A DNA stretch of 64,000 nt from NCBI GenBank assembly GCA_945864585.1, contig CAMBCF010000001.1, positions 3,825 through 67,824 on the forward strand, given 5' to 3'. This DNA is from Bordetella parapertussis (lineage in GTDB: Bacteria > Pseudomonadota > Gammaproteobacteria > Burkholderiales > SG8-41). The position numbers were made by a program, and so were the translations under genes. Numbering within the stretch: position 1 is the stretch's first letter; each line of letters opens with the position of its first letter. A model generated the notes under the pieces. It saw only the letters and a program-made list of their open reading frames with translations, searched no databases and was not told where the DNA came from. Positions 2,540 through 57,272 of this stretch are shown piece by piece.

Positions 2540-3724
2540 ATGACCACTCGCTACATTGCGCATCTCGATATGGATGCGTTCTACGCCTCCGTCGAATTGC
2601 TGCGCTATCCGCAACTGCGCGGGCAGCCCGCGGTGGTGGGGGGGCGGCGGCGCGGCGCCGAGCCTGTTTCGCCGGACGTATCGTTTCCCACGCTGCGCAC
2701 CTACAGCGGACGCGGCGTCATCACCACCGCTACTTACGAAGCACGCGCATTGGGCGTGCATTCGGGCATGGGCTTGATGAAGGCGGCAAAGCTCGCGCCC
2801 GATGCGTGGCTGCTGCCTGCGGATTTTGATCAATACCGGCGTTACTCGCGCCTGTTCAAGGAGGCCGTACGCGAGGTAGCGCCGCTGGTTGAAGATCGCG
2901 GCATCGACGAGATTTATATCGATCTCACCGCATTGGTAGCGCAAGGTGAGCCCAGCGATCCGTGGGCGCGCGCTCGCGAGATCGCGCTGCAACTGCAAAG
3001 CGCGGTGCGTGTCGCGACGGGCTTGTCGTGTTCAATTGGTGTCACACCCAACAAGCTGCTGTCGAAAATTGCCTCGGACCTGCACAAGCCCGGCGGCGTA
3101 ACGGTGCTAACCACGGACGACATACCTGCACGCATCTGGCCGCTGCCGGCGCGAAAGATCAACGGCATCGGCCCGAAAGCGAGTGCGCGGCTGGAAGCGC
3201 TGGGCATACGCACGGTCGGCGAGTTGGCCCGCGCCGATCCCGCGTTGCTGATCGAAAACTTCGGCAAAAATTACGGCGCGTGGATGCACGATGCGGCGCA
3301 CGGGCGCGACGCACGCGTGGTGGTCACCTACAGCGAACCCAAATCCATCAGCCGTGAAACCACCTTTGAGGATGATCTGCATGCGGTGCGCGATCGCGAA
3401 AAACTCTCGCGCATCTTCACGGATCTGTGCCTGCGCGTGGCGGATGATTTAAAGCGCAAAGGCGTGGTCGGCAAAACGATTGGTCTGAAACTGCGTTACG
3501 ACAATTTCAAAACGGTGACGCGTGATCGCACGATAGACGAGCCCACCGGTGATGCAGCGACCATACGCCGCGCGGCGGGCGAGTGTTTAAAGCGCGTGCC
3601 GCTGGACCGGCGCATACGCTTGCTGGGGGTGCGCGTGGGTGCTTTGAGTAAGCCCGGTGCGCCCAGGGTCAGCGCGAAATCAGCGCCTGCCACGCCTGCG
3701 CCAATGCTGTTTGATGATATGTAA
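2540..3724 (+). CDS. dinB: DNA polymerase IV (Y-family)
   Basis: IAHLDMDAFYASVE catalytic motif, SCSIGVTPNKLLSKIASD, and typical length of 394 aa. Confidence 0.93.
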   Translation: MTTRYIAHLDMDAFYASVELLRYPQLRGQPAVVGGRRRGAEPVSPDVSFPTLRTYSGRGVITTATYEARALGVHSGMGLMKAAKLAPDAWLLPADFDQYRRYSRLFKEAVREVAPLVEDRGIDEIYIDLTALVAQGEPSDPWARAREIALQLQSAVRVATGLSCSIGVTPNKLLSKIASDLHKPGGVTVLTTDDIPARIWPLPARKINGIGPKASARLEALGIRTVGELARADPALLIENFGKNYGAWMHDAAHGRDARVVVTYSEPKSISRETTFEDDLHAVRDREKLSRIFTDLCLRVADDLKRKGVVGKTIGLKLRYDNFKTVTRDRTIDEPTGDAATIRRAAGECLKRVPLDRRIRLLGVRVGALSKPGAPRVSAKSAPATPAPMLFDDM

Positions 3725-3740
3725 CTATTTGTTTTTAATA
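3722..3740 (+). promoter_or_regulatory. AT-rich box copy 1 (TAACTATTTGTTTTTAATA)
   Basis: Member of a 9-copy conserved box. Its TAA is the dinB stop codon. It lies in the 23-nt dinB-MATE spacer. Confidence 0.5.
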
Positions 3741-7455: not shown

Positions 7456-7475
7456 TCAATAAAAACAATGCCTTA
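7456..7475 (-). promoter_or_regulatory. AT-rich box copy 2 (TAAGGCATTGTTTTTATTGA on minus strand)
   Basis: Lies between the Bug stop (7450) and the hydrolase ATG (7468). The ATG lies inside the box. Confidence 0.5.
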
Positions 7476-13502: not shown

Positions 13503-14876
13503 CTATGGCGCGCACCCCGCCATCAATGCCTTAGCCGGCACGCTCTCCAGCCGTTCGAGCAATTCCTTCAGCGCTTGCGCACGCGCCGTGCCCAGTACGG
13601 CGCCGGCCAGCTTGTCGAATTTGGCGTCGAGCCGGGCGCCCTGCGCGGCGATGTCGGTTTCCGGAATGCTGGCGTCGTACGCGGCTTGCAACCGCCGGCC
13701 GTCACTGGTTTCGACTATAACTTCGGATTTCAGCGTGTGCTGGGGCCAGCCTTCGCGCACCAGTTCCACCGTCACCTTGTCGCGCATCGCCACCAGCGCG
13801 GCATCCGCGCAGCTTGCTTCGCTGTAGGTGTCGAGGCCGGCGGTATCCATTCCGAGCAGTGCTGCGGCCGCCATGAAACGCAGGCTGAATTTGGCTTCGA
13901 GGCCGGTGCGCGGATTCTGGATGTTGCACATGCTGTCGGCACTCTGCGCTACACGCACCACCGCGCGGCGGATCGCGCTGGCCGCAAACGCGTGACTCAC
14001 GCGCAGGTTACGTATGCACTCAACCGCCGAGTGCGTGCCGTAGCAGGCGGCGTGGTACTTGAACAGGTTGTCGCGAATGAAGTAGCGTTGCGGATCGGCC
14101 AGTGCTGCAGCGGGCTGAAAATCCGGGCTCAGCGTGGCGGCGAATCCACCGCGGCATTCGAGCATATCGATGCGGCTTTCCATGCCGCGCGCCGCCAGCA
14201 GCGTGGCGCGCAAACCGTTTTGTGCCGCGACACCCGCGTGAAACGGTTTGCACTGCGTGCCAAACTGGCTTTTGAGTCCCGAGGCTTGGGTGGCAGCGAT
14301 ACCGATGGCGCGTGCCGCCGCGTTGGCGTCCAGCCGCAGCAGGCGTGCGCAGCCTGCCGCGGCCGCTATCACGCCGATGGTGCAGGTGTTGTGGTAGCCG
14401 CGCGCATAGTGCCCCGGCGCCACCAGCAGGCCCACCCGCGCCGCGGTCTCGTAGCCTGCGACGAAGGCTGCGATAAGCTCCGCGCCACTGGCGTCACGCG
14501 TTTCCGCCAGCGCCAGCAGGGCGGGCAGTATCGCTGCGGTAGGGTGGCCGGTCATGCCGGTGTTGACATCGTCGTAGTCGAGCACATGCCCGGCGGCGCC
14601 GTTGATCAGCGCGGCCTGCAAGGGCGCAACGCGCTCGTGTTGCGCGACCATTGCGCAAGCGGGATAACCGCCTTCGTCCTGCGCCGCGCCGGTGAGGATG
14701 CGTATCAGCGGATCACTCGCCCCCGCCAGCGCCACCCCCATCCAGTCGAGCACGCAGCGGCGCGCGGCTTCGCGCACGTCAGCGGGTAGCCGCGCGGTGT
14801 CGCGTGCCAGTGCCCACTCGACCAGGGTTGCGGTGACAGCGGTAGCTTGTGTTTGCGTGGCTATTACAGCGGACAT
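13503..14876 (-). CDS. MmgE/PrpD family protein (2-methylcitrate dehydratase-like fold)
   Basis: 457 aa. ...GHVLDYDDV...GHPTAAILPALLA... are typical MmgE/PrpD N-domain motifs. Confidence 0.9.
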   Translation of the reverse strand: MSAVIATQTQATAVTATLVEWALARDTARLPADVREAARRCVLDWMGVALAGASDPLIRILTGAAQDEGGYPACAMVAQHERVAPLQAALINGAAGHVLDYDDVNTGMTGHPTAAILPALLALAETRDASGAELIAAFVAGYETAARVGLLVAPGHYARGYHNTCTIGVIAAAAGCARLLRLDANAAARAIGIAATQASGLKSQFGTQCKPFHAGVAAQNGLRATLLAARGMESRIDMLECRGGFAATLSPDFQPAAALADPQRYFIRDNLFKYHAACYGTHSAVECIRNLRVSHAFAASAIRRAVVRVAQSADSMCNIQNPRTGLEAKFSLRFMAAAALLGMDTAGLDTYSEASCADAALVAMRDKVTVELVREGWPQHTLKSEVIVETSDGRRLQAAYDASIPETDIAAQGARLDAKFDKLAGAVLGTARAQALKELLERLESVPAKALMAGCAP

Positions 14877-14892: not shown

Positions 14893-14912
14893 TTATTAAA
14901 AACAAATGCTTA
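14893..14912 (-). promoter_or_regulatory. AT-rich box copy 3 (TAAGCATTTGTTTTTAATAA on minus strand)
   Basis: Its TAA is the stop of the EamA remnant. The box lies about 17 nt upstream of the MmgE/PrpD ATG. Confidence 0.5.
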
Positions 14913-15074
14913 TGTGGCCTTCGTGGCCTTCGTGCTTTGTGGCCGGACACGGATCATCAACACACCGGCCAGCACCAGGCCCGCACCCATCAACTGTATC
15001 AGTGTAATGCGCTCTGCCGAAAAAATCCGCCCGAAAATCATCGTCGACAGCGGCCCGATGCAGCCAGGTCTTTG
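14910..15074 (-). pseudogene. C-terminal remnant of an EamA/DMT-family transporter
   Basis: An alternative reverse frame reads ...GPLSTMIFGRIFSAERITLIQLMGAGLVLAGVLMIRVRPQSTKATKAT*. This is the last TM helices of the EamA fold. An in-frame stop lies upstream, so only about 54 codons remain. Confidence 0.55.
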
Positions 15075-18759: not shown

Positions 18760-18800
18760 TCCGCTCTGTACTGTACGATAATGAAAGTCCCTATATCGCC

Positions 18801-18883
18801 CTACGCAAGCTACGTTTGCTACTTTGCTAGACCTGACCCCTATGCAAGCTACGTTTGCTACTTTGCTAGACCTGACCCCTATG
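18801..18883. repeat. 39-bp direct tandem repeat, 2.1 copies (1 mismatch)
   Basis: ctaYgcaagctacgtttgctactttgctagacctgaccc at 18801-18839 and 18840-18878, then partial ctatg. Confidence 0.9.
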
Positions 18884-18978: not shown

Positions 18979-19193
18979 GCGGAAATCGCGAATGTGATTT
19001 TGAAAGACCTAACCCCGTGACCGGACTGGACCGAAATTTAGCAAGGGCATGCACGCACGCATGGGGTCGCGTCTTGCCCATTGCCTATTCACTTATTATT
19101 TTCCTATTACTATTTTTGCCTATCGCGAGAGACGAGGTCTTTCATTACCACATCCCTTCGGTGTAAGCCTCAATAGCCTGAGAAATTCCGCAA

Positions 19194-28193: not shown

Positions 28194-28221
28194 GCGCATA
28201 ACGCATAGCGCATAGCGCACG
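28194..28221. repeat. Heptamer tandem repeat (GCGCATA-like) x4
   Basis: gcgcata acgcata gcgcata gcgcacg, giving ATA(A/G) stop-containing heptads downstream of the CMD gene. Confidence 0.6.
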
Positions 28222-30271: not shown

Positions 30272-30940
30272 TTAACTATTTGTTTTTATTATGGTTTTTA
30301 CATCGTCTGCGGTGCCCAGCAGTAACACGTCGGCACCGCGTCGCGCGAACAGGCCGTTGCTGACAACGCCGACAATTTGATTCAGTGCGGCCTCCAGCTC
30401 CATGGGTTTGGTGATCGACATATTGTGTATGTCGAGTATCAGGTTGCCGTTGTCGGTGGTGAAGCCCTGCCGCCACGCGGGCTGGCCGCCGAGCTTGACG
30501 ATCTCGCGCGCCACGTACGAGCGCGCCATGGAAACCACTTCCACCGGCAGCGGAAATTTGCCGAGCACATCCACCAGTTTCGATTGATCGGCGATACACA
30601 CGAATTTGCGCGCCACCGCGGCAACGATTTTCTCGCGCGTGAGCGCGCCGCCGCCGCCTTTGATCATCGCCAGGTGCGATGTGATTTCATCCGCGCCATC
30701 GACGTACAGCGGTAGATCCTTTACGCCGTTAAGATCATAAACCGCGATGCCCAGCGCTTTGAGTTTTTGCGCCGTGCTCTCGGAGCTGGCCACCGCGCCA
30801 TCGATGCGATGCCTGATTTTGCCCAGTGCGGTGATAAAAAAATCCGCGGTGGAGCCGGTGCCCACACCCACCACGCTGCCGTCTTCGACGTAGCGTATCG
30901 CAGCCTCGGCGGCTGCCTGTTTCATCTCATTTTGATTCAT
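30272..30940 (-). CDS. rpiA: Ribose-5-phosphate isomerase A
   Basis: [14 protein letters not shown], ...DGADEI...[14 protein letters not shown]. Confidence 0.95.
30273..30292 (+). promoter_or_regulatory. AT-rich box copy 4 (TAACTATTTGTTTTTATTAT)
   Basis: Overlaps the last codons and stop of rpiA on the opposite strand (encodes ...IIKTNS*). It lies 6 nt from the ppx start. Confidence 0.5.
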
Positions 30941-31023: not shown

Positions 31024-32538
31024 ATGACAACTCCTGATTACCTCCGGCGCATACTCGGCGCGCGGGTTTACGACGTAGCCATCGAGTCGCCGCTGGATTT
31101 TGCGCCCAATTTGTCCCGGCGCCTCAACCATCGCGTGCTGATCAAGCGCGAGGATTTGCAGCCGGTGTTTTCGTTCAAGCTGCGCGGCGCGTACAACAAA
31201 ATGGTGCGCTTGCCGAAGGCGGCGCTGGATCGCGGCGTGATTGCCGCCTCCGCCGGCAACCACGCACAGGGGGTGGCGCTGGCGGCGCAAAAGCTGCGCG
31301 GCAAGGCAACGATAGTGATGCCGGTAACCACGCCGCAAATCAAGGTGGAAGCCGTGCGCGCGCGCGGCGCACGTGTGCTGCTGCATGGGGATAGCTACGA
31401 GGAATCCTACGCTCATGCGAAAATTATTGAACAAAAACAAAAACTTACGTTTGTACATCCGTACGACGATCCGGATGTGATCGCAGGCCAGGGCACCATC
31501 GGCATGGAAATTTTGCGCCAACACGCGGCGCCGATCGATGCGATTTTTGTGCCGGTCGGCGGCGGTGGTTTGATTGCCGGCATCGCCGCCTACGTCAAGC
31601 GGCTGCGGCCCGAGATCAAAGTGATAGGTGTTGAGCCGGAAGATGCCGACGCCATGTATCAGTCACTGAAAGCGGGGCGCCGCGTCAAGCTCGATCAGGT
31701 GGGATTGTTCGCCGATGGGGTGGCGGTCAGGCAGGTGGGTGCGGAAACCTTCCGCCTGTGCCGCACGCTGGTGGATGACATTATCCGCGTTGATACCGAC
31801 GCCATCTGCGCCGCGATCAAGGATGTGTTTACCGACACCCGCGTGATCCTCGAACCGGCGGGCGCGCTCGGCGTCGCCGGCGCGAAGACCTACGCCGCGA
31901 AAACCCGCGCGCGCGGACAAACGCTGATCACGGTCGCCAGCGGCGCCAATATGAATTTCGACCGCCTGCGTTTCGTGGCGGAACAAGCGGAACTCGGCGA
32001 GCACCGCGAAGCCATACTCGCCGTGACCATTCCCGAAAGACCCGGCAGTTTCAAGGCATTTTGCGAATTGCTGGGGCCGCGCAACGTCACCGAATTCAAT
32101 TACCGCTACGACGACCCTGCAGCCGCGCAGGTGTTTGTGGGTGTGCAGATTAAAAATCGCGACGAAACCGCGCGCCTCACGCGCGCCCTGCGCCGCGCCG
32201 GACTTAAAACCCACGACTTGAGCAACAACGATCTCGCCAAACTGCATGTGCGGCACACCGTGGGCGGCCACGCGCCGTCAGTGAATAATGAAATACTTTA
32301 CCGCTTTGAATTCCCCGAGCGCCCGGGCGCGCTGATGCGGTTTTTGACCAGCATGAGCCGCGGCTGGAACATCAGCCTGTTTCATTACCGTAACCACGGC
32401 GCCGACTACGGCCGCGTGCTGGTAGGCATGCAGGTGCCGCCACAGGACAAAAAGCAATTTCAGGCGTTTCTCGACAAGGTGGGTTATCCGTACTGCGATG
32501 AGAGCCGCAATCCGGCGTATCGACTCTTTCTTGGGTAG
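31024..32538 (+). CDS. ilvA: Threonine ammonia-lyase, biosynthetic (two ACT-like C-terminal domains)
   Basis: FSFKLRGAYN (PLP lysine), GNHAQGVALAA, 504 aa. Confidence 0.95.
   Translation: MTTPDYLRRILGARVYDVAIESPLDFAPNLSRRLNHRVLIKREDLQPVFSFKLRGAYNKMVRLPKAALDRGVIAASAGNHAQGVALAAQKLRGKATIVMPVTTPQIKVEAVRARGARVLLHGDSYEESYAHAKIIEQKQKLTFVHPYDDPDVIAGQGTIGMEILRQHAAPIDAIFVPVGGGGLIAGIAAYVKRLRPEIKVIGVEPEDADAMYQSLKAGRRVKLDQVGLFADGVAVRQVGAETFRLCRTLVDDIIRVDTDAICAAIKDVFTDTRVILEPAGALGVAGAKTYAAKTRARGQTLITVASGANMNFDRLRFVAEQAELGEHREAILAVTIPERPGSFKAFCELLGPRNVTEFNYRYDDPAAAQVFVGVQIKNRDETARLTRALRRAGLKTHDLSNNDLAKLHVRHTVGGHAPSVNNEILYRFEFPERPGALMRFLTSMSRGWNISLFHYRNHGADYGRVLVGMQVPPQDKKQFQAFLDKVGYPYCDESRNPAYRLFLG
31428..31447 (-). 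promoter_or_regulatory. AT-rich box copy 9, degenerate, inside ilvA coding sequence
   Basis: The minus strand reads TAAGTTTTTGTTTTTGTTCA. On the plus strand it encodes ...IEQKQKLT... of IlvA. Confidence 0.35.
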
Positions 32539-32547
32539 GGCTTTGCT

Positions 32548-32647
32548 CAGTGTTTAGTTTTGAGTGTTTAGTTTTGAGTTGAGAGCGGTCGGGAAGGAGA
32601 GCGATCCTGGCTGCGAAAACGCAACACTCAAAACTAAGCACTCAACA
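32548..32647. repeat. Heptad-repeat hairpin (TGTTTAG/TTTTGAG units) after ilvA
   Basis: The left arm, tgtttagttttgag x2 (32551-32585), pairs with aacactcaaaactaagcactcaaca (32623-32647). Confidence 0.7.
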
Positions 32648-39794: not shown

Positions 39795-39876
39795 CAGGAC
39801 TGAGGATTGAGGACTGAGGACTGAGTAACCTCTGCGCAGAGGTTACTCTATCCTAAGTCCTCAGTCCTCAGTCCTG
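39795..39876. repeat. 82-bp near-perfect palindrome built of TGAGGAC heptamers, between ftsY and ftsE
   Basis: The 40-nt arms match at 36/40 positions around the central ctctgCGcagag. The ftsY stop codon (39868-39870) lies inside one arm, and the ftsE ATG lies 6 nt beyond the other. Confidence 0.9.
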
Positions 39877-40872
39877 AAGTAAAGCCGCCACAAACTCAGC
39901 CGCTTTGAACGGACGTAAATCCTCTAACCCTTCGCCCACGCCGATAAAGCGCACGGGTATCGGTAGTGCGCCCGCTTTCCGCGCGCGCACATGCGCGATG
40001 GCGGCAATCACACCCCCCTTGGCGGTGCCGTCGAGCTTGGTCAACACCAGACCGGTGACGCCCAGCGTGTCATCAAACGCTTTCACCTGCGCCAGCGCGT
40101 TCTGGCCGTTGTTGGCGTCGAGCACGATCAGTATCTCGTGCGGCGCGCCGGGCAGCGCTTTGTCGATAACGCGCTTCACCTTTTTTATTTCATCCATCAG
40201 ATTCAGTTGCGTCGGCAGGCGTCCTGCGGTATCCGCCAGCACCACGTCGATACCGCGCGCCACCGCCGCATGCATCGCGTCAAACATCACCGCCGCTGCG
40301 TCACCCGAGGCCTGGCTGATGACCGCGACGTTGTTGCGTTCGCCCCACGCCATCAATTGTTCGCGCGCCGCCGCGCGAAAGGTGTCGCCTGCCGCGAGCA
40401 ACACTTTTTTGCCCTGCGCCTGATAGTAGTGCGCGAGCTTGCCTATCGAGGTGGTTTTACCGGCGCCGTTCACCCCCGCCAGCATGATGACAAATGGCTT
40501 GTGCGTGCCCACATCCAGCGGCTGCTCTATGGGCTTTAGCATCGCGGTGAGGTTTTCCGCCAGCGCCTGTTTGAGTTGCACGGCGTCGGTATAGCGTTCG
40601 CGCCGCGCTTGCGCGCGCAGGGCGTCTATCAGGAAAGCGGTGGCTGTCACGCCTACGTCGGCGGACAGCAGCACCGTTTCGAGTTCGAGGTAAAACGCCT
40701 CGTCGAGCTTGCGCCCCGCGCCAAACAGCCCGGCGACCTGTGCGCCGAGTTTTTCGCGCGTTTTTGCAAGCCCCGACTTCAGCCGCGTGAGCCAGCCGCC
40801 GGAAGGCGTGCCGGCTTCGCCAGCAACCGCGGGCGCCGCATCTTTGTCTTTGGATTTGAGGAAACCAAACAT
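39868..40872 (-). CDS. ftsY: Signal recognition particle receptor FtsY
   Basis: MFGFLKSKDKD..., GVNGAGKTTSIGKLA, DTAGRL, TKLDGTAKGG. This is only the 3-prime 1005 nt of the 949-aa track ORF. Confidence 0.93.
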   Translation of the reverse strand: MFGFLKSKDKDAAPAVAGEAGTPSGGWLTRLKSGLAKTREKLGAQVAGLFGAGRKLDEAFYLELETVLLSADVGVTATAFLIDALRAQARRERYTDAVQLKQALAENLTAMLKPIEQPLDVGTHKPFVIMLAGVNGAGKTTSIGKLAHYYQAQGKKVLLAAGDTFRAAAREQLMAWGERNNVAVISQASGDAAAVMFDAMHAAVARGIDVVLADTAGRLPTQLNLMDEIKKVKRVIDKALPGAPHEILIVLDANNGQNALAQVKAFDDTLGVTGLVLTKLDGTAKGGVIAAIAHVRARKAGALPIPVRFIGVGEGLEDLRPFKAAEFVAALLQD

Positions 40873-40983
40873 CGGAAGTCGTGTCAGAAGCGAAGTCGGG
40901 CGCCAAGAGGTGTTACTCGGCGCGCTGTAATTGGATACAATTCTACCCGAAACATTTTGCAGGTCTCTCCCCCGGTGGTGCTT

Positions 40984-42393
40984 ATGTTGAATAATCTGAA
41001 TAAATGGATGGCGCGGCATGTCGCGCTCGGCGTGGTTGCGTTTTGCGTGCAGGCGGGGCTGCCAGCCACGGTGCACGCTGCCGACGCCAGCGTGGGTGAA
41101 CACGTTCTCTCCAACGGCATGCGCGTGATCGTCAAGACCGACCGCCGTGCGCCGGTGGTGGTGTCTATGGTTTGGTACAAGGTGGGCAGTGTGGACGAGG
41201 TGAACGGCGTCACCGGCGTCGCGCATGTGCTTGAGCACATGATGTTCAAGGGTACCAAAACCAATCCCAAGGCGGATTTTTCCAAACTGGTGGCGGCGGT
41301 GGGCGGGCGCGACAACGCGTTTACCGGCCGCGATTACACCGGCTATTTTCAGACGGTGCAAAAATCGCAATTGCCGCTGATGCTCAGGATGGAGGCCGAT
41401 CGCATGGTCAACACCCTGATCACGCAGGAGGAATTCAGCAAGGAAATCAAAGTGGTGATGGAAGAGCGGCGCATGCGCACCGACGACCGCGCACGTTCCG
41501 TGGTGTATGAGCAATTGATGGCGACGGCTTTGCGTGCGCATCCCTACCGCGCGCCGGTGGTGGGCTGGATGAGCGACCTGCAAAGCATGAACGCCGAAGA
41601 CGCGCGCGCCTTCTATGAAAAATGGTACGCGCCCAACAACGCCACGCTGGTGGTGGTGGGCGACGTGTCGCATGACGAGGTGTTCAGGCTGGCGCAGGAA
41701 CATTTCGGGCCGCACAAAATCAAAACCTTGCCGCAGCGTAAACCGCAGGACGAGCCGCCGCAGACCGGCATCCGCCGCATCACCGTCAAAGCCCCCGCCG
41801 AACAGCCGTATTTTTTGATGGCGTACCGCGCGCCCAAACTGCTGGACCCCGAAAAAGACTGGGAGCCGTACGCACTCGACATGCTGGCCAGCGTGCTCGA
41901 CGGCAACGGCGCGTCGCGCTTCAGCCGCGAACTCATACGCGGCACACAAATCGCCAGCAGCGTGGATGCCAGCTACGATGGCGTGGGCCGCGGCCCGGCG
42001 TTCTTTTATTTTTCGGGTGTGCCCACCTCGGGCAAAACGCTGGCAGAACTGGAGCAGGCGGTGCGCGGCGAAGTCAAAAAAATCATCGACGACGGCGTCA
42101 CCGAAGATGAACTCAAGCGCATCAAGGCCCAGGTCATCGCCTCGCGCGTGTATGAACGCGATTCCATGTTTTTCCAGGCGCGCCAGATAGGCTCGATGGA
42201 AACCTCGGGCTATTCGTACAAGACGATTGATCTTATGACCGAAAAATTCAAAGCCGTCACCGCCGAACAAGTGCGCGAAGTTGCGCGCAAATATTTGATC
42301 GACGATGTGTTGACCGTGGCCTATCTCGATCCACAGCCGGCAGGCGAAAGAAAGCCCGCGGCGCCTACAGCCGGAGCACGTCATGCGCAGTAA
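40984..42393 (+). CDS. M16 (pitrilysin) family zinc peptidase, catalytic-type subunit
   Basis: The signal peptide and the HVLEHMMFKGT (HxxEH) motif. Start at MLNNLNKWM. Confidence 0.88.
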   Translation: MLNNLNKWMARHVALGVVAFCVQAGLPATVHAADASVGEHVLSNGMRVIVKTDRRAPVVVSMVWYKVGSVDEVNGVTGVAHVLEHMMFKGTKTNPKADFSKLVAAVGGRDNAFTGRDYTGYFQTVQKSQLPLMLRMEADRMVNTLITQEEFSKEIKVVMEERRMRTDDRARSVVYEQLMATALRAHPYRAPVVGWMSDLQSMNAEDARAFYEKWYAPNNATLVVVGDVSHDEVFRLAQEHFGPHKIKTLPQRKPQDEPPQTGIRRITVKAPAEQPYFLMAYRAPKLLDPEKDWEPYALDMLASVLDGNGASRFSRELIRGTQIASSVDASYDGVGRGPAFFYFSGVPTSGKTLAELEQAVRGEVKKIIDDGVTEDELKRIKAQVIASRVYERDSMFFQARQIGSMETSGYSYKTIDLMTEKFKAVTAEQVREVARKYLIDDVLTVAYLDPQPAGERKPAAPTAGARHAQ

Positions 42394-43720
42394 GTTATTG
42401 TTTTTATTAATTATTCTTGTTATTCCAGGCGCAGCGCAGGCCATTCTGCCGATCCAGCATTGGCAAACGGCCAATGGCGCACGCGTATATTTCGTCGCAA
42501 ACCGCGATCTGCCGATGCTCGATCTGAGCATCGATTTCGCTGCCGGCTCGGGCTTCGACCGCAGCGAAAAACCCGGCGTCGCGAGCATGACCAACCGCGT
42601 CATGCGCCTCGGCGCCGAGGGCATGACCGAAGACGAAATCGCCAGCAAAACCGCTGACGTGGGTGCGGGGATTTCAGGGCGTTTTGACAGCGACCGCGCG
42701 GGCCTCTCCCTGCGCACGCTGTCGAGCCGCGCGGAGCGCGAGCAGGCGCTGCAGGTCTACACGCGCATTTTGCACAAGCCGCTGTTTCCGCAACCTGCGT
42801 TTGAGCGTGAAAAAACGCGGCTCATCGGCGCGCTCAAGGAATCTGATATTCAGCCGGGCACCATAGCGGGACTGACGTTTAACCGCTTGATGTATAGCGC
42901 GCATCCCTACGGACTGCGTGCGTCGGGCGACGTTGAATCGGTGGGCAAAATTACCCGCGACGATCTTACTGCGTTTTACCGGCGTCACTACGTTGCGCGC
43001 AACGCCGTAATCGCCATCATGGGCGACGTTTCGCGTGATGAGGCCAACGCCATTGCCGAGCGCATCACCGCGGGTCTGCCCCAGCCGGACGGGCGTGTAG
43101 CGCCGGTGCTGCCGCCGGTGGAAGCGCAAGCGCAAAAGGTAACGCGCCTGATCCCGCATCACGCGTCGCAAAGCCACATCCTCATCGGCGCCATCGGCAT
43201 TGCGCGCAATGACCCGGATTATTTTCCCTTGTTCGTCGGCAACTACGTGCTGGGCGGCGGCGGATTTGCCTCGCGCATCAACGAAGAAGTGCGGCAAAAG
43301 CGCGGCCTCGCCTATTCGGCGTACAGTTATTTTTCGCCGTTGGCGCAAAAAGGCTCGTTCGTCATCGGCATGCAGACGCGCAAGGATCAGGCGCAGGAAG
43401 CGCTCGATGTCACGCTTAAAACCCTGCGCGATTTTGTGGCGCATGGCCCGACCGCGAAAGAACTGCAGGACGCCAAGGCCAACCTCATCGGCGGCTTTCC
43501 GTTGCGCATCGACAACAACCGCAAGATTCATGAATATCTGGGCGTGATCGGTTTCTACAATCTGCCGCTGAAGTATCTGGATGAATTTACCGGCAACATC
43601 GAGCGCGTAACCGCCGCCGACATCAAGCGCGCCTTTGCCGCGCGCATAGACCCCGACAAGCTGATCACGGTGGTGGTGGGTGCTGAAGGCGCTGAAAAAG
43701 CGGCAGCCGCGCCGAAATAA
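42383..43720 (+). CDS. M16 family peptidase-like protein (no HxxEH; non-catalytic partner)
   Basis: The M16 fold and length, with signal peptide MRSKLLFLLIILVIPGAAQA. It overlaps the upstream gene by 11 nt. Confidence 0.85.
   Translation: MRSKLLFLLIILVIPGAAQAILPIQHWQTANGARVYFVANRDLPMLDLSIDFAAGSGFDRSEKPGVASMTNRVMRLGAEGMTEDEIASKTADVGAGISGRFDSDRAGLSLRTLSSRAEREQALQVYTRILHKPLFPQPAFEREKTRLIGALKESDIQPGTIAGLTFNRLMYSAHPYGLRASGDVESVGKITRDDLTAFYRRHYVARNAVIAIMGDVSRDEANAIAERITAGLPQPDGRVAPVLPPVEAQAQKVTRLIPHHASQSHILIGAIGIARNDPDYFPLFVGNYVLGGGGFASRINEEVRQKRGLAYSAYSYFSPLAQKGSFVIGMQTRKDQAQEALDVTLKTLRDFVAHGPTAKELQDAKANLIGGFPLRIDNNRKIHEYLGVIGFYNLPLKYLDEFTGNIERVTAADIKRAFAARIDPDKLITVVVGAEGAEKAAAAPK
42391..42410 (+). 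promoter_or_regulatory. AT-rich box copy 5 (TAAGTTATTGTTTTTATTAA)
   Basis: Its TAA is the stop of the first M16 gene. The rest encodes KLLFLLI of the second gene's signal peptide. Confidence 0.5.
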
Positions 43721-43739
43721 GTGTCGTGACTGAAGCTGT

Positions 43740-45059
<1,320 letters not shown>

Positions 45060-45106
45060 TATAATTATGGGGCAAGAAGAACGCAGCCCGGTAAAAGTAA
45101 CGCCCT

Positions 45107-45676
45107 ATGAGTGCGACTGAAAAAGCCACGGACTCAATGCTAACCCGCGAAACGATACTTCGTGGGTTGCAGGCGTTGTCTGACGCATTGGAAAAACACG
45201 GCGTGACGGGTGAAGTTTGCCTGTTTGGCGGCACCGTCATGGTGCTGGCTTTTAGCGCGCGGCTGATGACGAAAGATGTGGATGCGCTATTCCAACCCAC
45301 CCGGACCATTCGCGAGCTCGCCCGCCGTATCGCAACGGAGCAACACCTGCCTGCCGATTGGCTCAATGATGGTGTCAAGGGTTATATATCAGCTCGCCAC
45401 GAGATCACAGCAGGAAATCTCCCCCAATTTACGCATCTGCGTTTAACCATGCCAGTGCCGGAGTACCTGCTTGCAATGAAATGTATGGCTGCCCGCATCG
45501 GCACGGCTGTGGGTGAACCGACAGATGTCGCCGATATAGTGTTTCTGATCCGCCATCTGAAACTTACATCCGCGCACGCAGTGATAGAGGGCGTAGCACG
45601 TTACTATCCCGCCAATCGCATTCCGTTGAAAACGCAGTATCTGGTGGAAGGGTTGTTCGACGAGGGGAAGGTATGA
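45107..45676 (+). CDS. Minimal nucleotidyltransferase-fold protein (DUF6036/AbiEii-like)
   Basis: The CLFGGTVMVLAFSARLMTKDVDALF motif (G-G...D-x-D NTase pattern), then ...DWLND... and ...YLLAMKCMAAR....D..DI. No annotated function known to me. Confidence 0.6.
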   Translation: MSATEKATDSMLTRETILRGLQALSDALEKHGVTGEVCLFGGTVMVLAFSARLMTKDVDALFQPTRTIRELARRIATEQHLPADWLNDGVKGYISARHEITAGNLPQFTHLRLTMPVPEYLLAMKCMAARIGTAVGEPTDVADIVFLIRHLKLTSAHAVIEGVARYYPANRIPLKTQYLVEGLFDEGKV

Positions 45677-46053
45677 GACCCAGTACCCTGCTGCAAGTCG
45701 CACAACGCGCGCATGATGGCGATGACTTCGACCGCTGCCTGGCCAATTTTCTCGATGCGTTTTACGCCGTGCCCAATGCGGAGGCGTTGTCGCCGGAACC
45801 GGCTCTGTTAGCGCCCACGCTGGGTGACCTGGGCCATGTGCAGGATGCATATCTCGCGGCAACGGCTGAGCACCTGGCTTGCCATTACGGCTTTGCCGTG
45901 CCCGCCTGGGTTGTGGCGGATGAACGCAAATTGCAGCGCCCGTGGTTTGCCTCGCAACTGGCGTCTTTGCGCGCGGTATTGCTTTTGGAAAGCCCCGTAG
46001 CGTTTCGTTCGCGCAATATTTTCATCAGTGAGAACGCCCTCTCACGCGCCTAA
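45673..46053 (+). CDS. Hypothetical protein, translationally coupled partner of the NTase
   Basis: Its ATG overlaps the NTase stop (ATGA). 126 aa, with coding-like composition. I recognise no family or motif. Confidence 0.5.
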   Translation: MRPSTLLQVAQRAHDGDDFDRCLANFLDAFYAVPNAEALSPEPALLAPTLGDLGHVQDAYLAATAEHLACHYGFAVPAWVVADERKLQRPWFASQLASLRAVLLLESPVAFRSRNIFISENALSRA

Positions 46054-46145
46054 GCCGCCAGCACCCAAGCCGTCAGCGGTGGCAGCCCCGGCGTTGCGGT
46101 GACAATTCACCGCGTTTCTGCGTAAAGACATTCAGGATTATTAAT

Positions 46146-47030
46146 ATGACACTTGCTAGCGGTATACCTGAACCGCCCGTTTGCCCCGGCCCCGATCTCA
46201 ACACGCGCAAACCGTCGTTCTCCCTGCCGCCGGGCGCCACCGACAGTCACGCCCATGTGTTTGGCGAGCGCGAAAAATACGCTTACGCCGCCGACCGGCA
46301 ATACACGCCGGCGCCGGTATTCCTGAAAGACTATCTTGCCATGCACGATGCGGTGGGCTTCACGCGCGGCGTGGTGGTGCAGTCGGGGGTGCATGGCACC
46401 AACAACAACGTAATCGTCGATGCCATCGCGCAGTCACATGGCCGGCTGCGCGGCATTGCGTTGCTGCGTGAGGATATTGCCGACGCTGAACTCGATGCGC
46501 TGGACCAAGCGGGCGTGCGCGGCTTTCGCGCGAATCTGGTGGCGAAAGTCGGTGTGCAATTCGACGCCGCAAAAAAACTCGCCGCGCGTGTTGCGCGTCT
46601 GGGCTGGCACGCGCAGTTTTTGCTGGATATCGAAAATTTTCCCGACTTCGACCGCATCGCCGCCGAGTTTCCCGCCAAAATGGTCATCGATCACATGGGC
46701 CGGCCGGATGTGGCGAAGGGCGTAAACGCGCCGGGCTTTCAGGCACTGATCCGCGCACTGCGTAGCGGGCGCGTGTGGACGAAACTGTCTGCGCCGTACC
46801 GTACTTCCCGCGCGCCGATACCCTACGACGATCTCACCCCGTTCGCACACGCGCTGGTGGCAGCGGCACCCCAGCAACTGGTGTTCGGCACCGACTGGCC
46901 GCATGTGATGATGGAAGGCGAAATGCCCAATACCGGCACGCTGGTGGAACAGCTTGCGGTGTGGGTGCCGGATGCTGTCATACGCACAAAAATACTCGTG
47001 AACAATCCCGTCCGTTTGTATCGTTTTTGA
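46146..47030 (+). CDS. Amidohydrolase-2 family (LigI / 2-pyrone-4,6-dicarboxylate lactonase-like)
   Basis: GATDSHAHVFG metal motif, ...IDHMGRPD..., ...FGTDWPH. Confidence 0.85.
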   Translation: MTLASGIPEPPVCPGPDLNTRKPSFSLPPGATDSHAHVFGEREKYAYAADRQYTPAPVFLKDYLAMHDAVGFTRGVVVQSGVHGTNNNVIVDAIAQSHGRLRGIALLREDIADAELDALDQAGVRGFRANLVAKVGVQFDAAKKLAARVARLGWHAQFLLDIENFPDFDRIAAEFPAKMVIDHMGRPDVAKGVNAPGFQALIRALRSGRVWTKLSAPYRTSRAPIPYDDLTPFAHALVAAAPQQLVFGTDWPHVMMEGEMPNTGTLVEQLAVWVPDAVIRTKILVNNPVRLYRF

Positions 47031-47106
47031 ATGTCGTTTTTGGGCAGGCTATAAGGCTAGAAATCATTGCATTCGAGTAGATCAGGATTAATCCGGCTGC
47101 CGCAAA

Positions 47107-47811
47107 TCAACTGAGCGCGGTCACCGGCACCGCAGCGCCATGCACGGCGCTTGCGGCATCTGACGCGAGGAACACGATCACGTTTGCCAAATCCGCCGGC
47201 GCGACCCACTTCGCCGGATTCGCCTTGGGCATCGCCGCGCGGTTTTCGGGCGTGTCGATAATGGTCGGCAGCACGCAATTGACGTTGATGTTCTTCTCAC
47301 GCAGTTCCGCTGCCATCGCCTCGGTCATCCGGATTACCGTGCCCTTCGACGCGGTGTAAGCGCCCATTTGCGCCACGCCCTTTTGCGCGGCAAAGGCGCC
47401 AATGTTGATGATCTTGCCGCTGCCTGCCGCTATCATGTGCGGCACCACGGCACGCACCGCGTGCAGCAGCGTGCGGGTGTTGATGTCGAACAGGAAGTTC
47501 CAGTTCTCGTCCGAGGTCTCATGCACCGTTTCGCCCATGCGGAATCCGCCGGCGATGTTGCACAGCACGTCGATGCGTCCGAAGCGCGCGAGTGCGGCTT
47601 GCGCAACAGCTGTCGCTCCGGCCATCTCGAGAAGATTCGCGGGCGCGAACGAGCGGTGTTCGCCCTCCTCTCCAAAGGCCGCCTGCAGACTCTCGCGTCT
47701 GAGATCCACCAGCATCAGGTCGGCGCCCAGATCGCCAAACGCCTTGGCCACGGCCTTGCCCAGATTGCCGGCCGCGCCGGTGACGATGACAGTTCGATTG
47801 CCAAAGCTCAT
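47107..47811 (-). CDS. SDR-family oxidoreductase
   Basis: The VIVTGAAGNLGKAVA motif. Start taken at MSFGNRT. Confidence 0.88.
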   Translation of the reverse strand: MSFGNRTVIVTGAAGNLGKAVAKAFGDLGADLMLVDLRRESLQAAFGEEGEHRSFAPANLLEMAGATAVAQAALARFGRIDVLCNIAGGFRMGETVHETSDENWNFLFDINTRTLLHAVRAVVPHMIAAGSGKIINIGAFAAQKGVAQMGAYTASKGTVIRMTEAMAAELREKNINVNCVLPTIIDTPENRAAMPKANPAKWVAPADLANVIVFLASDAASAVHGAAVPVTALS

Positions 47812-47869
47812 ATTCCTTCTCCCGAATGCGGTGTGGACAGTGTGTGCAGATTGCATTTTGCCACGCCGA

Positions 47870-48685
47870 TTAGCGTTGGCAGGTAGAGCAATAGAATGTC
47901 GACCGCTGTCCCTGCTGCAAGCGCTTAATCAGTGTACCGCAGCGGTTACACGGTTGCCCTTCGCGGTCATATACCGCGAAATTACTCTGAAAATTCCCCG
48001 CCATGCCGTCGCCGCCGACATAATCGCGAATGCTGCTGCCCCCCGCGGTGATGGCTGCGCTCAGGGTTTCCCGAATCGAATTGGCCAATGCGTCACAGCG
48101 CGCGCGGGTGAGCCGGCGCGCGGCGATACGCGGGCTGATGCCGGCACGGAACAGCGCTTCGCTGGCGTAGATGTTGCCCACGCCCACCACCACGTGGCTG
48201 TCCATGACGACAAGTTTGATGGCGGCGCTGCGCTTGCGTGTAACGTTGTAGAGCGCCGCGCCGCTGAAATCCGCGGACAGCGGTTCGGGGCCTAAAAGCG
48301 CGAACAACTTGTGCCGCAACACGTCCCCGCTATGCCACAGTACCAGGCCGAAGCGCCGCGGGTCGCGCAGGCGCACGGCTTTGCCGTTCGACAGCACCAG
48401 ATCGAAGTGATCGTGTTTTTCCGGCGGCGTGTCGCGATCCACCAGCCACAAGCGTCCCGACATGCCCAGATGCACAATCAAGGTGCCGGTGCCGCAATCG
48501 ATCAGCAAATATTTCGCGCGCCGTGTCAGTGCGCGTATGGTCAGGCCCGCCACGCACCGGGGTAACGCGCGCGGAATCGGCTGACGCATGCGCCGCTCGC
48601 GCACTACCGCGTGCGTGATGCGCACGCCCACCATCGCCGTGAGCAGACCGCGGCGCGTGGTTTCGACTTCGGGGAGTTCGGGCAT
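47870..48685 (-). CDS. mutM: Formamidopyrimidine-DNA glycosylase
   Basis: MPELPEVETTRRGL and a C-terminal zinc finger CNRCGTLI...YCSTCQ. Confidence 0.95.
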   Translation of the reverse strand: MPELPEVETTRRGLLTAMVGVRITHAVVRERRMRQPIPRALPRCVAGLTIRALTRRAKYLLIDCGTGTLIVHLGMSGRLWLVDRDTPPEKHDHFDLVLSNGKAVRLRDPRRFGLVLWHSGDVLRHKLFALLGPEPLSADFSGAALYNVTRKRSAAIKLVVMDSHVVVGVGNIYASEALFRAGISPRIAARRLTRARCDALANSIRETLSAAITAGGSSIRDYVGGDGMAGNFQSNFAVYDREGQPCNRCGTLIKRLQQGQRSTFYCSTCQR

Positions 48686-48695
48686 TTTAGAGTGA

Positions 48696-48758
48696 TGAGG
48701 ACTAAGGACTAAGGACTGAGGACTGAGGACTGAGGACTAAGGACTGAGGACTGAGGAG
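48696..48758. repeat. Heptamer tandem array (TRAGGAC) x9
   Basis: tgaggac taaggac taaggac tgaggac tgaggac tgaggac taaggac tgaggac tgaggag. It lies between the DUF4340 stop and the mutM start. Confidence 0.9.
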
Positions 48759-48783
48759 CGAAGGGGGTAACCTATTCACTCCT

Positions 48784-49617
48784 TCACCGCCCTACAGGCG
48801 CCGACATCATTTTTTTGCCTACGTCGCCAACGAAAACGAATTGCAGACCGAGGTCCGCGCGGCGCACAATGAGTTCCGGTTCGGATAGCACTATGCCGAG
48901 CGTGATCCTGGCGCCGTCTTTGAGTGTGATGTGAATTTCACTGGCCGGTTTGCGTACATCACTCGCTTCAGTGCGCAGCGCGCTGCCGTCGCGCCACTGC
49001 GCTACCCAGCGGTTGTAATCGTCTTGCGAGAGTTCGCCGGCGGACGGCGCGGTGCTCCATTTTTTTCCGTCGGTGGCGACAGTGAATGCGCCAAATTCAA
49101 AGCGCAGCGGCGCGTCATTGGGCGCCAGCACGCTGCGCCGCAACAGCGCCTGCGCATCTGCCGGCACGGCAGCGGCGAAGCGTAATTCCAGCAGGAAAAT
49201 CTGATTTTGCGTGAGCAGGTATTGTTCGCGCGTGACGGTGTTGATGGCGCCGAACGCAAACCGTTGATCGTTGATGATGAGTTCTGTCTGAGGTTGGTCG
49301 AGCTCGAATTTCGCGGCTTCCGATGCCGGGTACTGCAACGCGCTTTTGGCTTCAAGCACCGCCAGCAGCCGCAGCACCTGAAAATCGTCGGCGGGCGCCT
49401 GGACCGGCTCAGTCATGAACCACTGCGCATTGCGCTTTTCCAGCACCGCCAGCGTCTTGCCTTTACGCAGCACACGCAGCGTGCGCGCGTCAGCGGGCTT
49501 GAGTGCCGAGACCGCGTGCGCCGGGCCTTGCGGTTTAGGCGGCTTTAGCCACACCAACAAGCCCAGCGCGATGACGCAGGCGAACAGTGCGCCGAGGGTA
49601 ATCCAGCGTTTGCGCAC
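48784..49617 (-). CDS. DUF4340-like protein associated with GldG-type ABC systems
   Basis: An N-terminal TM anchor and the position directly after a GldG-like gene. The GTG at 49617 overlaps the upstream stop by 1 nt (the track start is 49644). Confidence 0.6.
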   Translation of the reverse strand: MRKRWITLGALFACVIALGLLVWLKPPKPQGPAHAVSALKPADARTLRVLRKGKTLAVLEKRNAQWFMTEPVQAPADDFQVLRLLAVLEAKSALQYPASEAAKFELDQPQTELIINDQRFAFGAINTVTREQYLLTQNQIFLLELRFAAAVPADAQALLRRSVLAPNDAPLRFEFGAFTVATDGKKWSTAPSAGELSQDDYNRWVAQWRDGSALRTEASDVRKPASEIHITLKDGARITLGIVLSEPELIVRRADLGLQFVFVGDVGKKMMSAPVGR

Positions 49618-50978
49618 TAGAACGCCTTGCGCCGCCGCCACCACACTACGATGCCGGTAATGGCGAACACCAGCGGCAGCACCAGCAGAAATGTAAACGC
49701 GATCGTATACAGCAAGGTCTGATCGATGCTGATCTGCACATCGGCGGCCGGACGCGGCGGGATCGCGATCAGCTTGTCGTCGCCGCTGAGCCAGTTGAGC
49801 ATCGCTACGCCCAATTGCAGATTGCCGCCGTTGCCCAAAAACGAATTCGACAAAAACGCGCCGTTGCCCACCACCACCACGCGCTGCTGCCGGTCGCCCG
49901 CGGTGCGTTCGAACGCGGTAGCAATATTAATCGGGCCCTGAAAATCACGATCTTTGTCAAACACGGGTTTGTCGTCGAGCTTGTCGGTTTCGACCCAGCC
50001 GCGTTGTGCGACTTCAATCAGCGGCGTCATGCGCCAGCCTTCGCGCTCGTCCGCGCCGATCTGGCGGCTGCCGGGAAACAGCGTGTTCAGGCGAAACGCG
50101 CCGGTGATGGCATGGCGCGCGTAGTTCGAACCGACCGCGAGCGTGGGCGGGCCGCTGCGCGGTTTCAACGACGGATCAACCACCGTGCCGGGTGTCAACA
50201 CCAGGCCTAGAAATTCCGCCACCGGCTCCAGGCCGTGCAAGGGTTCGGGATCCATCAACCATAGTAGATTACCGCCTGCCTCGACGTGCGCGCGCAGCTT
50301 CGCCACTTCACTCTCCTGCAAATTCGCTTGCGGGCTGGCGATGATCAGGGCGGCGGCATTGCGCGGCACATCCTGCGCGACCGACAGATTCAAACTGGAA
50401 AGCTTGTAACCTTTCAACTGCAACTGGCGGCCGAATTCACCGAGATCGTGATTGGCGACGCCATCGAGTTTGCGTTCACCGTGGCCATCGAGCCAGTACA
50501 GCACCGCGTTGCTGGTGCGCGTGAGACGTATCAGCGCGTTGACGAAATTCTGCTCGTTGAATTCACCCAGCGGCAGATGTTCGGTGCGGTTCTTATGCTC
50601 AATCACCAGTTCGTTGGGCGAACGCAGCCCTGCCGCGTTGGCGCGCTTGGGGTCGTCGCGCGGATCGACCAACGCCAACGAGAGATCGGGTTTTATGCGT
50701 TGCCATGGGCGCAATTTTTCCTGCACCAGTTTGTGGACATCGTTGCCGCTGCCGTCTTTTGCCATGGCGTAGGCGGTAACGTTGACCGGGCCGTCGAATT
50801 GCTTGAGCGCATCCTGCGTGCCCTGCGACAGCGTGTTGCGCGCGTTGGCGGTGACATCCCGCTCGACGCGATACTCCTGCGCCACCCACGCCAGCAGCAT
50901 CACCAGCGCGAGCAACAGCAGCGTGTAGATCAAGCCTTGCGCGAGCAACTGCGAGCGGACTTTGCGGTTAATGTTCAT
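49617..50978 (-). CDS. GldG-like ABC-transport auxiliary protein
   Basis: N- and C-terminal TM anchors flank a large periplasmic domain. It is the third gene after the ABC ATPase and ABC-2 permease. Start at MNINRKV. Confidence 0.75.
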   Translation of the reverse strand: MNINRKVRSQLLAQGLIYTLLLLALVMLLAWVAQEYRVERDVTANARNTLSQGTQDALKQFDGPVNVTAYAMAKDGSGNDVHKLVQEKLRPWQRIKPDLSLALVDPRDDPKRANAAGLRSPNELVIEHKNRTEHLPLGEFNEQNFVNALIRLTRTSNAVLYWLDGHGERKLDGVANHDLGEFGRQLQLKGYKLSSLNLSVAQDVPRNAAALIIASPQANLQESEVAKLRAHVEAGGNLLWLMDPEPLHGLEPVAEFLGLVLTPGTVVDPSLKPRSGPPTLAVGSNYARHAITGAFRLNTLFPGSRQIGADEREGWRMTPLIEVAQRGWVETDKLDDKPVFDKDRDFQGPINIATAFERTAGDRQQRVVVVGNGAFLSNSFLGNGGNLQLGVAMLNWLSGDDKLIAIPPRPAADVQISIDQTLLYTIAFTFLLVLPLVFAITGIVVWWRRRKAF

Positions 50979-50988
50979 GCCCGAACCA

Positions 50989-52748: not shown

Positions 52749-52896
52749 TGATAATGTGGCTTTATAAGCGTCGCTTGTGGAGTGTGCGAAATATACCTAA
52801 ACTGTGAAACTTAATGAAGCGATGTTGCTCAAAACGCTCGAATAATCATTTGCTTATTTCATATTTATTGCTGTTGTCGCGAAACGCCTCGTCCTT

Positions 52897-54651: not shown

Positions 54652-54660
54652 CTTCGGTAA

Positions 54661-55245: not shown

Positions 55246-55289
55246 TGTCGCGAACCGCGCGGCGCAAGGGAGGGAGCTAATTTCGCGCC

Positions 55290-56159: not shown

Positions 56160-56179
56160 TAAGCCATTGTTTTTATTAT
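56160..56179 (+). promoter_or_regulatory. AT-rich box copy 7 (TAAGCCATTGTTTTTATTAT)
   Basis: Starts the base after the ispE TAG stop and ends 6 nt before tRNA-Gln. Confidence 0.5.
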
Positions 56180-56185
56180 TTTATT

Positions 56186-56260
56186 TGGGGAGTCGCCAAG
56201 TGGTAAGGCACCGGATTTTGATTCCGGCATTCGTAGGTTCGATCCCTACCTCCCCAGCCA
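56186..56260 (+). tRNA. tRNA-Gln (anticodon UUG)
   Basis: TGGGGAG...CTCCCCA acceptor stem with G discriminator and encoded CCA. Anticodon arm CCGGA-TTTTGAT-TCCGG. Near-identical in layout to E. coli tRNA-Gln. Confidence 0.95.
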
Positions 56261-56318
56261 GAATTTCTGCACGCTGCCGGATCTATCAACCGTGAATGAA
56301 TATCGGGGTTCCGCCGCA

Positions 56319-57266: not shown

Positions 57267-57272
57267 ATTTTT

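Follow-up and report, generated by a model that had tools for sequence, protein, structure and literature searches.

A dispersed AT-rich box at gene ends of an uncultured Burkholderiales clade as a candidate integration host factor-type site

A short AT-rich sequence, here called the box, recurs at gene junctions in a 64,000-nucleotide stretch of contig CAMBCF010000001.1 (assembly GCA_945864585.1, positions 3,825 to 67,824), which was analysed as a whole and is referred to below as the window. The box is a dispersed motif conserved across a clade, and thus more than a feature of the window alone, since it is found both in relatives and at unrelated GC-rich loci of metagenomes. The best explanation, held with moderate confidence and built on sequence comparison, is that the boxes are stand-alone architectural sites of the type bound by integration host factor (IHF), which have multiplied in one uncultured Burkholderiales clade and evolve in place. 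In this window of 60% GC, the 12-mer TTGTTTTTAWTA has seven exact matches where dinucleotide-preserving shuffles give 0.01, which bears out the judgement of the first-pass annotation, made from the letters of the window, that such a 12-mer should occur far less than once in 64 kb. The 19-mer TAANNNWTTGTTTTTAWTA, allowing at most two mismatches, has 10 matches against an expectation of 0.00, eight of them good and two degenerate; nine had been listed in the first-pass annotation with coordinates, strands and sequences that all proved correct, and the tenth, a degenerate one, had gone unlisted. When AT-rich islands are defined by at least 25 A/T in 30 nt, 12 are present in the window and eight of these are boxes.

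The box had been described as about 20 bp long, but the conserved unit is longer. Alignment of the flanks delimits a full unit of ~27-32 bp that comprises weak conservation over ~4 nt upstream, the 19-mer and a loose AWTWTTTT tail on the 3' side, where the boundary is fuzzy. In most copies the tail (ATATTTTT or AWTWTTTT) starts 8-9 bp 3' of TTGTTT, and beyond it the sequence switches abruptly back to GC-rich DNA; the flanks of ~60 copies are unrelated to one another and GC-rich from ~5 nt upstream and ~12 nt downstream. The clade-wide consensus can be written TAA-STAW-TTG-W-TTTTATT-R followed by the T-rich tail. Constraint within it is position-specific. In a leave-one-out tabulation from which the retrieval seeds were removed, TAA, TTG and TTTTATT are invariant, position 19 is a purine, and variation falls on positions 4-7, which separate TAA from TTG and are fully variable in the window but prefer S-T-A-W in the relatives. 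Position 11, scored in 37 copies, is T in 26 and A in 11 (29%). The consensus folds at a minimum free energy of 0 kcal/mol on both strands, with no hairpin, and neither terminal repeats, terminal inverted repeats nor dyad symmetry were found in the box.

The window belongs to an uncultured member of the Burkholderiales. The ispE protein of the window matches on metagenome contigs only, and the best Fpg matches among those listed for species-representative genomes, 65-67% identical, belong to metagenome-assembled genomes (MAGs) labelled 'Burkholderiales bacterium'. Homologues of the M16B protein encoded in the window span identities from 98% to 64%, and DNA was fetched around six of them. Boxes occur in the relatives L086-L091 (71-94% identity), with up to five per 21 kb and in a slightly different dialect, namely TAAGTATTTGTTTTTATTG followed by ATATTTTT. 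A single box was found in L006, and none in the outgroups L092 (a 66% relative) and L007 (a MAG). The density of TAAnnnnTTGWTTTTA, in copies per 100 kb, is 12.5 for the window, 8.4 for the ingroup relatives and 0.12 for other GC-rich proteobacterial loci, of which 846 kb were covered. A search of JGI metagenomes for the exact 19-mer TAAGTATTTGTTTTTATTG gave, among the matches listed, 60 of 80 loci at 55% GC or more, a composition at which this 19-mer cannot arise by chance. The flanks of these listed GC-rich loci are nearly all unrelated, with few near-duplicate contigs. No description of the motif was found in the literature: full-text searches with its 12- and 13-mers on both strands returned only primers, unrelated eukaryotic or viral sequences and one A-rich Hfq-Crc target string. 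Likewise, Rfam contains no family with a match in the window except tRNA, and none that overlaps a box.

What singles out IHF is the coincidence between the constrained positions of the box and those specified by this protein. The IHF consensus reads TAAnnnnTTGATW in the orientation of the box (PMC10380432), or equivalently WATCAANNNNTTR (PMC5896051). The complement of the box agrees with WATCAANNNNTTR at 12 of 13 positions in every window copy, as had been noted at first reading. Invariant positions 1-3 and 8-13 are the specified positions of IHF, and the variable block falls on the N4 of the consensus. Whereas the T11 form of the box matches 12 of 13 positions, the A11 form (11 of the 37 leave-one-out copies) matches all 13. 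Finally, the T-tract lying 8-9 bp beyond the core corresponds to the A/T element of strong IHF sites, among them lambda H' (PDB 1IHF).

Additional support, indirect but independent, comes from viral sequences. IMG/VR was scanned with TAASYAWTTGWTTTTATTR; the majority of the matches lie in AT-rich contigs and are probably due to chance, while eleven lie in contigs of at least 55% GC, and nine of these eleven have the canonical A at position 11. In L304, beside a gene for a Prim-Pol/DUF3987 primase-helicase, the box is enclosed by two triplets of 9-nt iterons, one on each side, and in L234 two copies stand beside iterons and adjoin a homologous primase-helicase gene. Both regions (13300-13550 in L304 and 2640-2900 in L234) combine direct and inverted sets of 9-nt iterons (TGCCCTATT in L304, AATAGTCGC in L234) with an AT-rich stretch and one or two boxes, next to a 736-aa Prim-Pol/DUF3987 gene, and probably serve P4-like elements as origins of replication. 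In L330 the box follows closely on the 3' side of a DUF3987 gene, and in L250 it is flanked by GGTAACC repeats; in L281 it separates an integrase gene from a host gene, and in L256 an integrase gene from a tRNA 3' end. Iteron origins and integrase/attachment (att) sites are classical settings for IHF as a host DNA-bending factor.

From these features we infer both IHF as the binding protein and an effect of the bend that it would impose. The predicted reader is a nucleoid protein that bends DNA at specific sequences, with the IHF heterodimer as the most probable candidate, and would recognize the box with high affinity: TAA, four semi-variable base pairs, TTG-W-TT, TTATTR and the 8-9 bp that lead to the T-tract would together reproduce the TTR, WATCAA and flanking A/T elements of an IHF site. 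Once bound, it would wrap ~30 bp of a short spacer beside the 3' end of a gene and bend them sharply, and the bend may punctuate the architecture of the chromosome, for instance by forming a boundary of supercoils or domains, or by organising adjacent transcription units. Copies would not be transposed; selection on the contact positions would keep them where a compact, GC-rich genome tolerates 30 bp of A+T, namely, in either orientation, directly behind stop codons and now and then in the codons of signal peptides or C-termini. In such places, the TAA and TTA triplets of the box would have been co-opted as stop codons of the neighbouring genes.

Several observations weigh against this explanation. 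Between 8 and 20% of composition-matched shuffles of a 32-mer reach 12/13 or better, and because of this, and because the box family counts as a single observation, the consensus match taken alone is weak. Most copies have T at position 11, where the consensus has A. Positions 14-18 (TTATT) and the S-T-A-W preference in N4 are conserved beyond the canonical requirement of IHF, so that the box may be read by some other protein, or by an IHF whose specificity has shifted. No ihfA or ihfB was detected in any fetched locus by tblastn with E. coli IhfA and IhfB as queries. Around boxes, promoters of the sigma-54 type, with which IHF classically works, show no enrichment (1 observed versus 0.6 expected). 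Other GC-rich proteobacteria possess IHF, yet the 846 kb of their loci mentioned above are without the expansion.

A broader formulation, entertained as a possibility well below the preferred one, regards the box as a previously undescribed form of genome punctuation: a non-palindromic, non-mobile recognition sequence of ~30 bp, present at hundreds of gene ends and evolving where it stands by selection or molecular drive. Such a sequence might override codon choice in signal peptides and supply the stop codons of its neighbours; its reader could be a re-specialised IHF or a new protein, and its function might lie in insulating supercoiling and transcription between packed genes, or in the recognition of self DNA, as in uptake. 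Of the rival explanations the strongest, though of low probability, is the site of another sequence-specific protein, such as a nucleoid protein of the clade, an HU/IHF paralogue or a global regulator, with the resemblance to IHF being coincidental. The conservation beyond the IHF core (invariant TTTTATT, preferred S-T-A-W) speaks for such a protein, as do an expansion confined to one clade although IHF is universal in proteobacteria and a consensus match that is not significant alone. What makes it unlikely is that the invariant and variable positions align with the IHF consensus and that the main variant, A11, is a perfect IHF site; moreover, the att and origin contexts are typical of host bending factors, and the dyad symmetry needed by most dimeric regulators is lacking.

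The placement of the boxes bears on whether they act in DNA or in RNA. Genes were called in 67 GC-rich sources, and 95 boxes were classified by the junction at which they stand: 32 lie between co-directional genes in direct orientation and 22 in reversed orientation, 15 at divergent and 13 at convergent junctions, 11 at contig edges and two deep inside a called gene. These counts roughly follow the usual genomic frequencies of junction types, and no orientation rule emerges across the 95. The window copies split 4:4 by orientation, although GC skew keeps one sign over most of the stretch (cumulative 0 to 0.54). The rule that does emerge concerns gene ends. A gene 3' end lies at most 10 nt away for 38 of 94 boxes and at most 25 nt away for 53, whereas called starts, which are less reliable than stops, lie within 10 nt for 12 of 94. 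The TAA of the box is the stop codon of the upstream gene in 10 of 50 cases, and a gene of the opposite strand ends within -20 to +9 nt of the 3' end of the box in ~24 of 37. Boxes also abut the 3' ends of tRNAs on the other strand (L155, L043, L319 and L256), and some overlap coding sequence. A polar chromosome motif of the Chi or KOPS kind was ruled out by the 4:4 orientation found despite the one-sign skew.

Taken together, both orientations, all junction types and the hugging of 3' ends argue against a strand-specific RNA signal, a promoter or a terminator. A scan for promoters and terminators over 40000-59999, a segment that contains three boxes and one degenerate copy, found no terminator-like and no good promoter-like site coinciding with them; the one overlap is with the box at 56160-56178, whose final base and tail are reached by a weak promoter-like match (9/12) of the minus strand. 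A sigma-70 promoter-like site, TTGAAA-17-TATAAT (11/12), lies at 55848-55876 (+) inside ispE, ~310 nt upstream of tRNA-Gln. Judging from its sequence, it may drive tRNA-Gln and prs independently of the box, so that the box in front of this tRNA need not be a promoter. It is improbable that the box is an AU-rich signal read in RNA, whether as an unstructured standby site for S1 or the ribosome in place of a Shine-Dalgarno sequence, as an RNase E cleavage site or as an Hfq site. The lack of structure would suit such a signal, many copies lie 0-20 nt ahead of a start codon without a visible Shine-Dalgarno sequence, and one lies 7 nt before tRNA-Gln. In addition, the reverse strand of the box, AAUAAAAACAAA, consists of four ARN triplets, and a near-identical A-rich string is found among Hfq-Crc target sequences (PMC9890229), which serves as a lead only. 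However, strand specificity would then be expected and the split is 32 direct to 22 reverse; the 13 convergent and 15 divergent junctions and the closer proximity to stop than to start codons do not fit, the same 19-mer stands in the iteron clusters of replication origins, and an AU-rich enhancer has no need of 15 invariant positions. The translation enhancer that the first-pass annotation had offered as an alternative thus fits poorly with the two orientations and the convergent junctions.

Comparison of orthologous junctions indicates how boxes come and go. The best-documented case is the M16A-M16B junction, where the outgroup L092 has ATGCGCAGTAAGGGCGGGCC... and the ingroup ATGCGCAGTAAGTATTTGTTTTTATTG..., with signal peptides of similar length. 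In the DNA of the six relatives the box is constant and the surrounding codons vary, and in L090 and L091 it is displaced by 9 and 21 nt, respectively, while staying in the one open frame. Its translation, L[FI]L[LF] (from TTG-WTT-TTA-TTN), is found within the first 30 residues of M16B in 64 of 73 homologues of at least 67% identity versus 0 of 40 more distant ones. A motif of the DNA has thus been preserved within a signal peptide, a region that normally evolves fast. The DUF4340-fpg junction carries a direct box in L087 and L089, a reversed one in L006, a degenerate one in L091 and, in the window, L086 and L092, heptamer arrays instead. Spacers with and without a box were compared at M16A-M16B, DUF4340-fpg, ftsX-rpoH, fdx and its next gene, and ispE-tRNA, and no net gain of length was seen in those that carry one; the ftsX-rpoH spacer, for instance, measures 121-149 nt with a box versus 161 nt in the box-free outgroup. 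Simple insertion is therefore unlikely. The absence of terminal repeats and hairpins, the fuzzy 3' edge, the unchanged spacer length and the position-specific variation all point to boxes that arise and stay in place through selection or drive on particular positions, and not through transposition.

This makes it doubtful, and slightly more so than for the RNA signal, that the box is a miniature repeat, selfish or neutral, without host function, spread by some copy-and-paste process or left as the scar or target of a mobile element. High copy number, dispersal, presence or absence and even inversion at orthologous junctions (DUF4340-fpg) and the two window copies that adjoin gene fragments would agree with such a repeat. 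Yet it should have a hairpin, terminal inverted repeats or a defined 3' end, vary uniformly and lengthen the spacers that it enters, none of which is the case; one copy has been kept in frame within a signal peptide down to ~67% identity, and no transposase was found in association with the boxes. The footprint of a site-specific element, also suggested at first reading, fits poorly on the same grounds. Least probable of all is a DNA uptake signal, which would build up in a naturally competent lineage whose uptake and recombination favour it. The strict core with its dialects (in the window TATTA, N4 being free; in relatives TAAGTATTTG...TATTG), the over-representation in both orientations and at any junction type, the apparent in-place origin without net insertion and the occasional copies in tolerant coding stretches would suit it. 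However, the density is ~1 per 8-12 kb, where known uptake sequences are about ten times denser, at roughly one copy per kb, and often lie within genes; the boxes are nearly absent from coding DNA (only two of 95 deep in called genes) and their precise placement between iterons or beside integrases in mobile elements suggests a structural role there.

The individual copies of the window illustrate these rules. According to open reading frame calling and Pfam, all eight good copies occupy very short spacers with co-directional genes on both sides, in keeping with the junction placement noted at first reading. Copy 1 (3722-3740, +, tail to ~3752; TAACTATTTGTTTTTAATA) lies in direct orientation between dinB (2540-3724) and MatE, its TAA being the dinB stop. 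Copy 2 (7457-7475, -; TAAGGCATTGTTTTTATTG) is reversed between the plus-strand genes for TctC and an alpha/beta hydrolase, and the hydrolase ATG at 7468 falls inside it. Copy 3 (14894-14912, -; TAAGCATTTGTTTTTAATA) is direct between a fragment of an EamA gene, to which its TAA provides the stop, and an MmgE/PrpD gene starting at 14876, 17 nt downstream of the box. Copy 4 (30273-30291, +; TAACTATTTGTTTTTATTA) is reversed between the minus-strand genes rpiA and ppx, and the C-terminus of rpiA (..IIKTNS*) is read through it. Copy 5 (42391-42409, +; TAAGTTATTGTTTTTATTA) is the direct copy at M16A-M16B: its TAA is the M16A stop (gene end 42393), and the remainder codes for KLLFLLI in the signal peptide of M16B, whose ATG is at 42383. 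Copy 6 (45041-45059, -), again TAACTATTTGTTTTTATTA, is reversed between a ferredoxin gene (44786-45043), whose TAA stop is the complement of the 3' end of the box, and a hypothetical gene. Copy 7 (56160-56178, +; TAAGCCATTGTTTTTATTA), direct between ispE and tRNA-Gln, begins immediately after the ispE TAG stop (56159) and ends 7 nt before the tRNA (56186). Copy 8 (62507-62525, -; TAACTTATTGTTTTTATTA) is direct between a fragment of an Ldh_2 gene, which ends 19 nt upstream of the box, and a second MmgE/PrpD gene (61104-62507), the last A of the box being the A of its ATG. The assignments of stop and start codons made at first reading agree with these gene calls, including the TAA stops of dinB, the first M16 gene and the EamA fragment, the TAG of ispE and the starts at 7468, 62507 and 14876.

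Two box-like stretches with two mismatches each are of uncertain membership in the family. One (31429-31447, -) is the degenerate ninth copy and lies within the coding region of ilvA, where it codes for ..KIIEQKQKL..; this gene is otherwise GC-rich, and even the flank of the stretch (AAAATTATT) looks like the tail seen in copies 2 and 6. The other (54658-54676, +; TAAATGATCGTTTTTAATC), the one that had gone unlisted, occupies the junction between a TPR gene and lolB and contains the lolB ATG. Among the AT-rich islands, those other than boxes are found at 19086-19117, 52840-52870 and 63831-63902; a 39-nt tandem repeat of 2.2 copies occupies 18799-18883. The island at 52840 (TAATCATTTGCTTATTT), in a divergent spacer between ABC and TPR genes, may be a decayed box.

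The gene fragments beside copies 3 and 8 share a common arrangement. A C-terminal fragment of an EamA transporter (14910-15035, -; Pfam EamA, E=3e-6) and an internal fragment of an Ldh_2 dehydrogenase (62545-62793, -; profile positions 87-160 of 333) each lie just upstream of a box that is followed by an MmgE/PrpD paralogue (13503-14876 and 61104-62507, respectively), and the repetition of fragment, box and paralogue at two sites suggests past rearrangement. Beside the Ldh_2 fragment, an apparently truncated open reading frame of 196 aa with a HipA_C domain and then an HTH_3 protein (62886-63814, -) look like a degraded toxin-antitoxin module of the HipBA type.

The heptamer arrays encountered at the DUF4340-fpg junction represent a second kind of junction element. 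They are tandem arrays, for example TGAGGAC repeated 8.9 times, and some form inverted pairs, as in the ftsE-ftsY interval and on the 3' side of prs. In the window they are located at 48696-48757, 39796-39825 and 39851-39875, 57269-57304 and 57327-57357, 28194-28219, and 32549-32579. The ftsX-rpoH spacers have a feature of their own, an inverted repeat GGCACTCT-N-AGAGTGCTAA upstream of rpoH in four relatives, the box-free outgroup included (spacers at 5717-5837 in L089, 5771-5919 in L090, 5809-5952 in L091 and 5695-5855 in L092), which may be a regulatory element of rpoH.

If the boxes are IHF sites, the clade would offer a clean natural system in which to ask what IHF repeats at gene ends are for, a question posed by the RIB/BIME-1 repeats of E. 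coli since 1993. Boxes stand out sharply against a background of 60% GC and are free of confounding REP (repetitive extragenic palindromic) sequences, and their conservation over deep divergence allows gains, losses and inversions to be mapped at orthologous junctions. They also illustrate how a signal at the level of DNA can dictate protein sequence, in signal peptides and C-termini, and the position of stop codons. In practice, the box is a marker by which metagenomic contigs, and possibly phages and integrative elements, can be assigned to the lineage.

Known systems resemble the box to different degrees. The closest by analogy are the RIB/RIP (BIME-1) elements of E. coli, presented in a passage of PMC3333891 that cites Boccard and Prentki 1993 as IHF-site repeats at the 3' ends of transcription units. 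They are repeated extragenic sites of IHF consensus, as the box would be too, and like it number from dozens to hundreds, cluster at gene 3' ends and between genes, and take either orientation. However, the E. coli elements possess two inverted REP flanks, whereas the box has neither REP arms nor a hairpin and corresponds to the IHF-like part only, ~30 bp long and set in a GC-rich betaproteobacterial clade; in addition, it frequently shares bases with a stop or start codon and can even be protein-coding, with no sign of a RAYT transposase among the loci analysed. Lacking REP palindromes on its flanks, the box falls outside the RIB/RIP family. The comparison with RIP/BIME elements made in the first-pass annotation consequently holds in one part, extragenic sites of IHF type being the best, if tentative, reading of the sequence, and fails in the other, the box being no RIP/BIME element itself.

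Single functional IHF sites, such as those of lambda attP (H', H1 and H2), plasmid and phage origins, and oriC, datA and DARS2 (PMC10380432), display the same TAAnnnnTTGATW with a flanking A/T tract, and the box holds such positions in the GC-rich viral contigs. They differ in being unique and embedded in a larger nucleoprotein machine, whereas on the chromosome each box is isolated in a spacer of 20-150 bp, and the boxes have multiplied throughout the genome. The DNA uptake sequences (DUS) of Neisseriaceae and the uptake signal sequences (USS) of Pasteurellaceae share with the box a short strict core, lineage dialects, both orientations and an in-place origin, to which USS add an AT-rich flank, but the box is about ten times less dense and nearly excluded from coding DNA. 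Finally, an IHF consensus is carried by mobile interspersed repeats, namely the Correia elements of Neisseria and QMITE1 of Coxiella (PMC5896051), which in this respect resemble the box; these are, however, 100-400 bp long with terminal inverted repeats and target duplications, all of which the box lacks.

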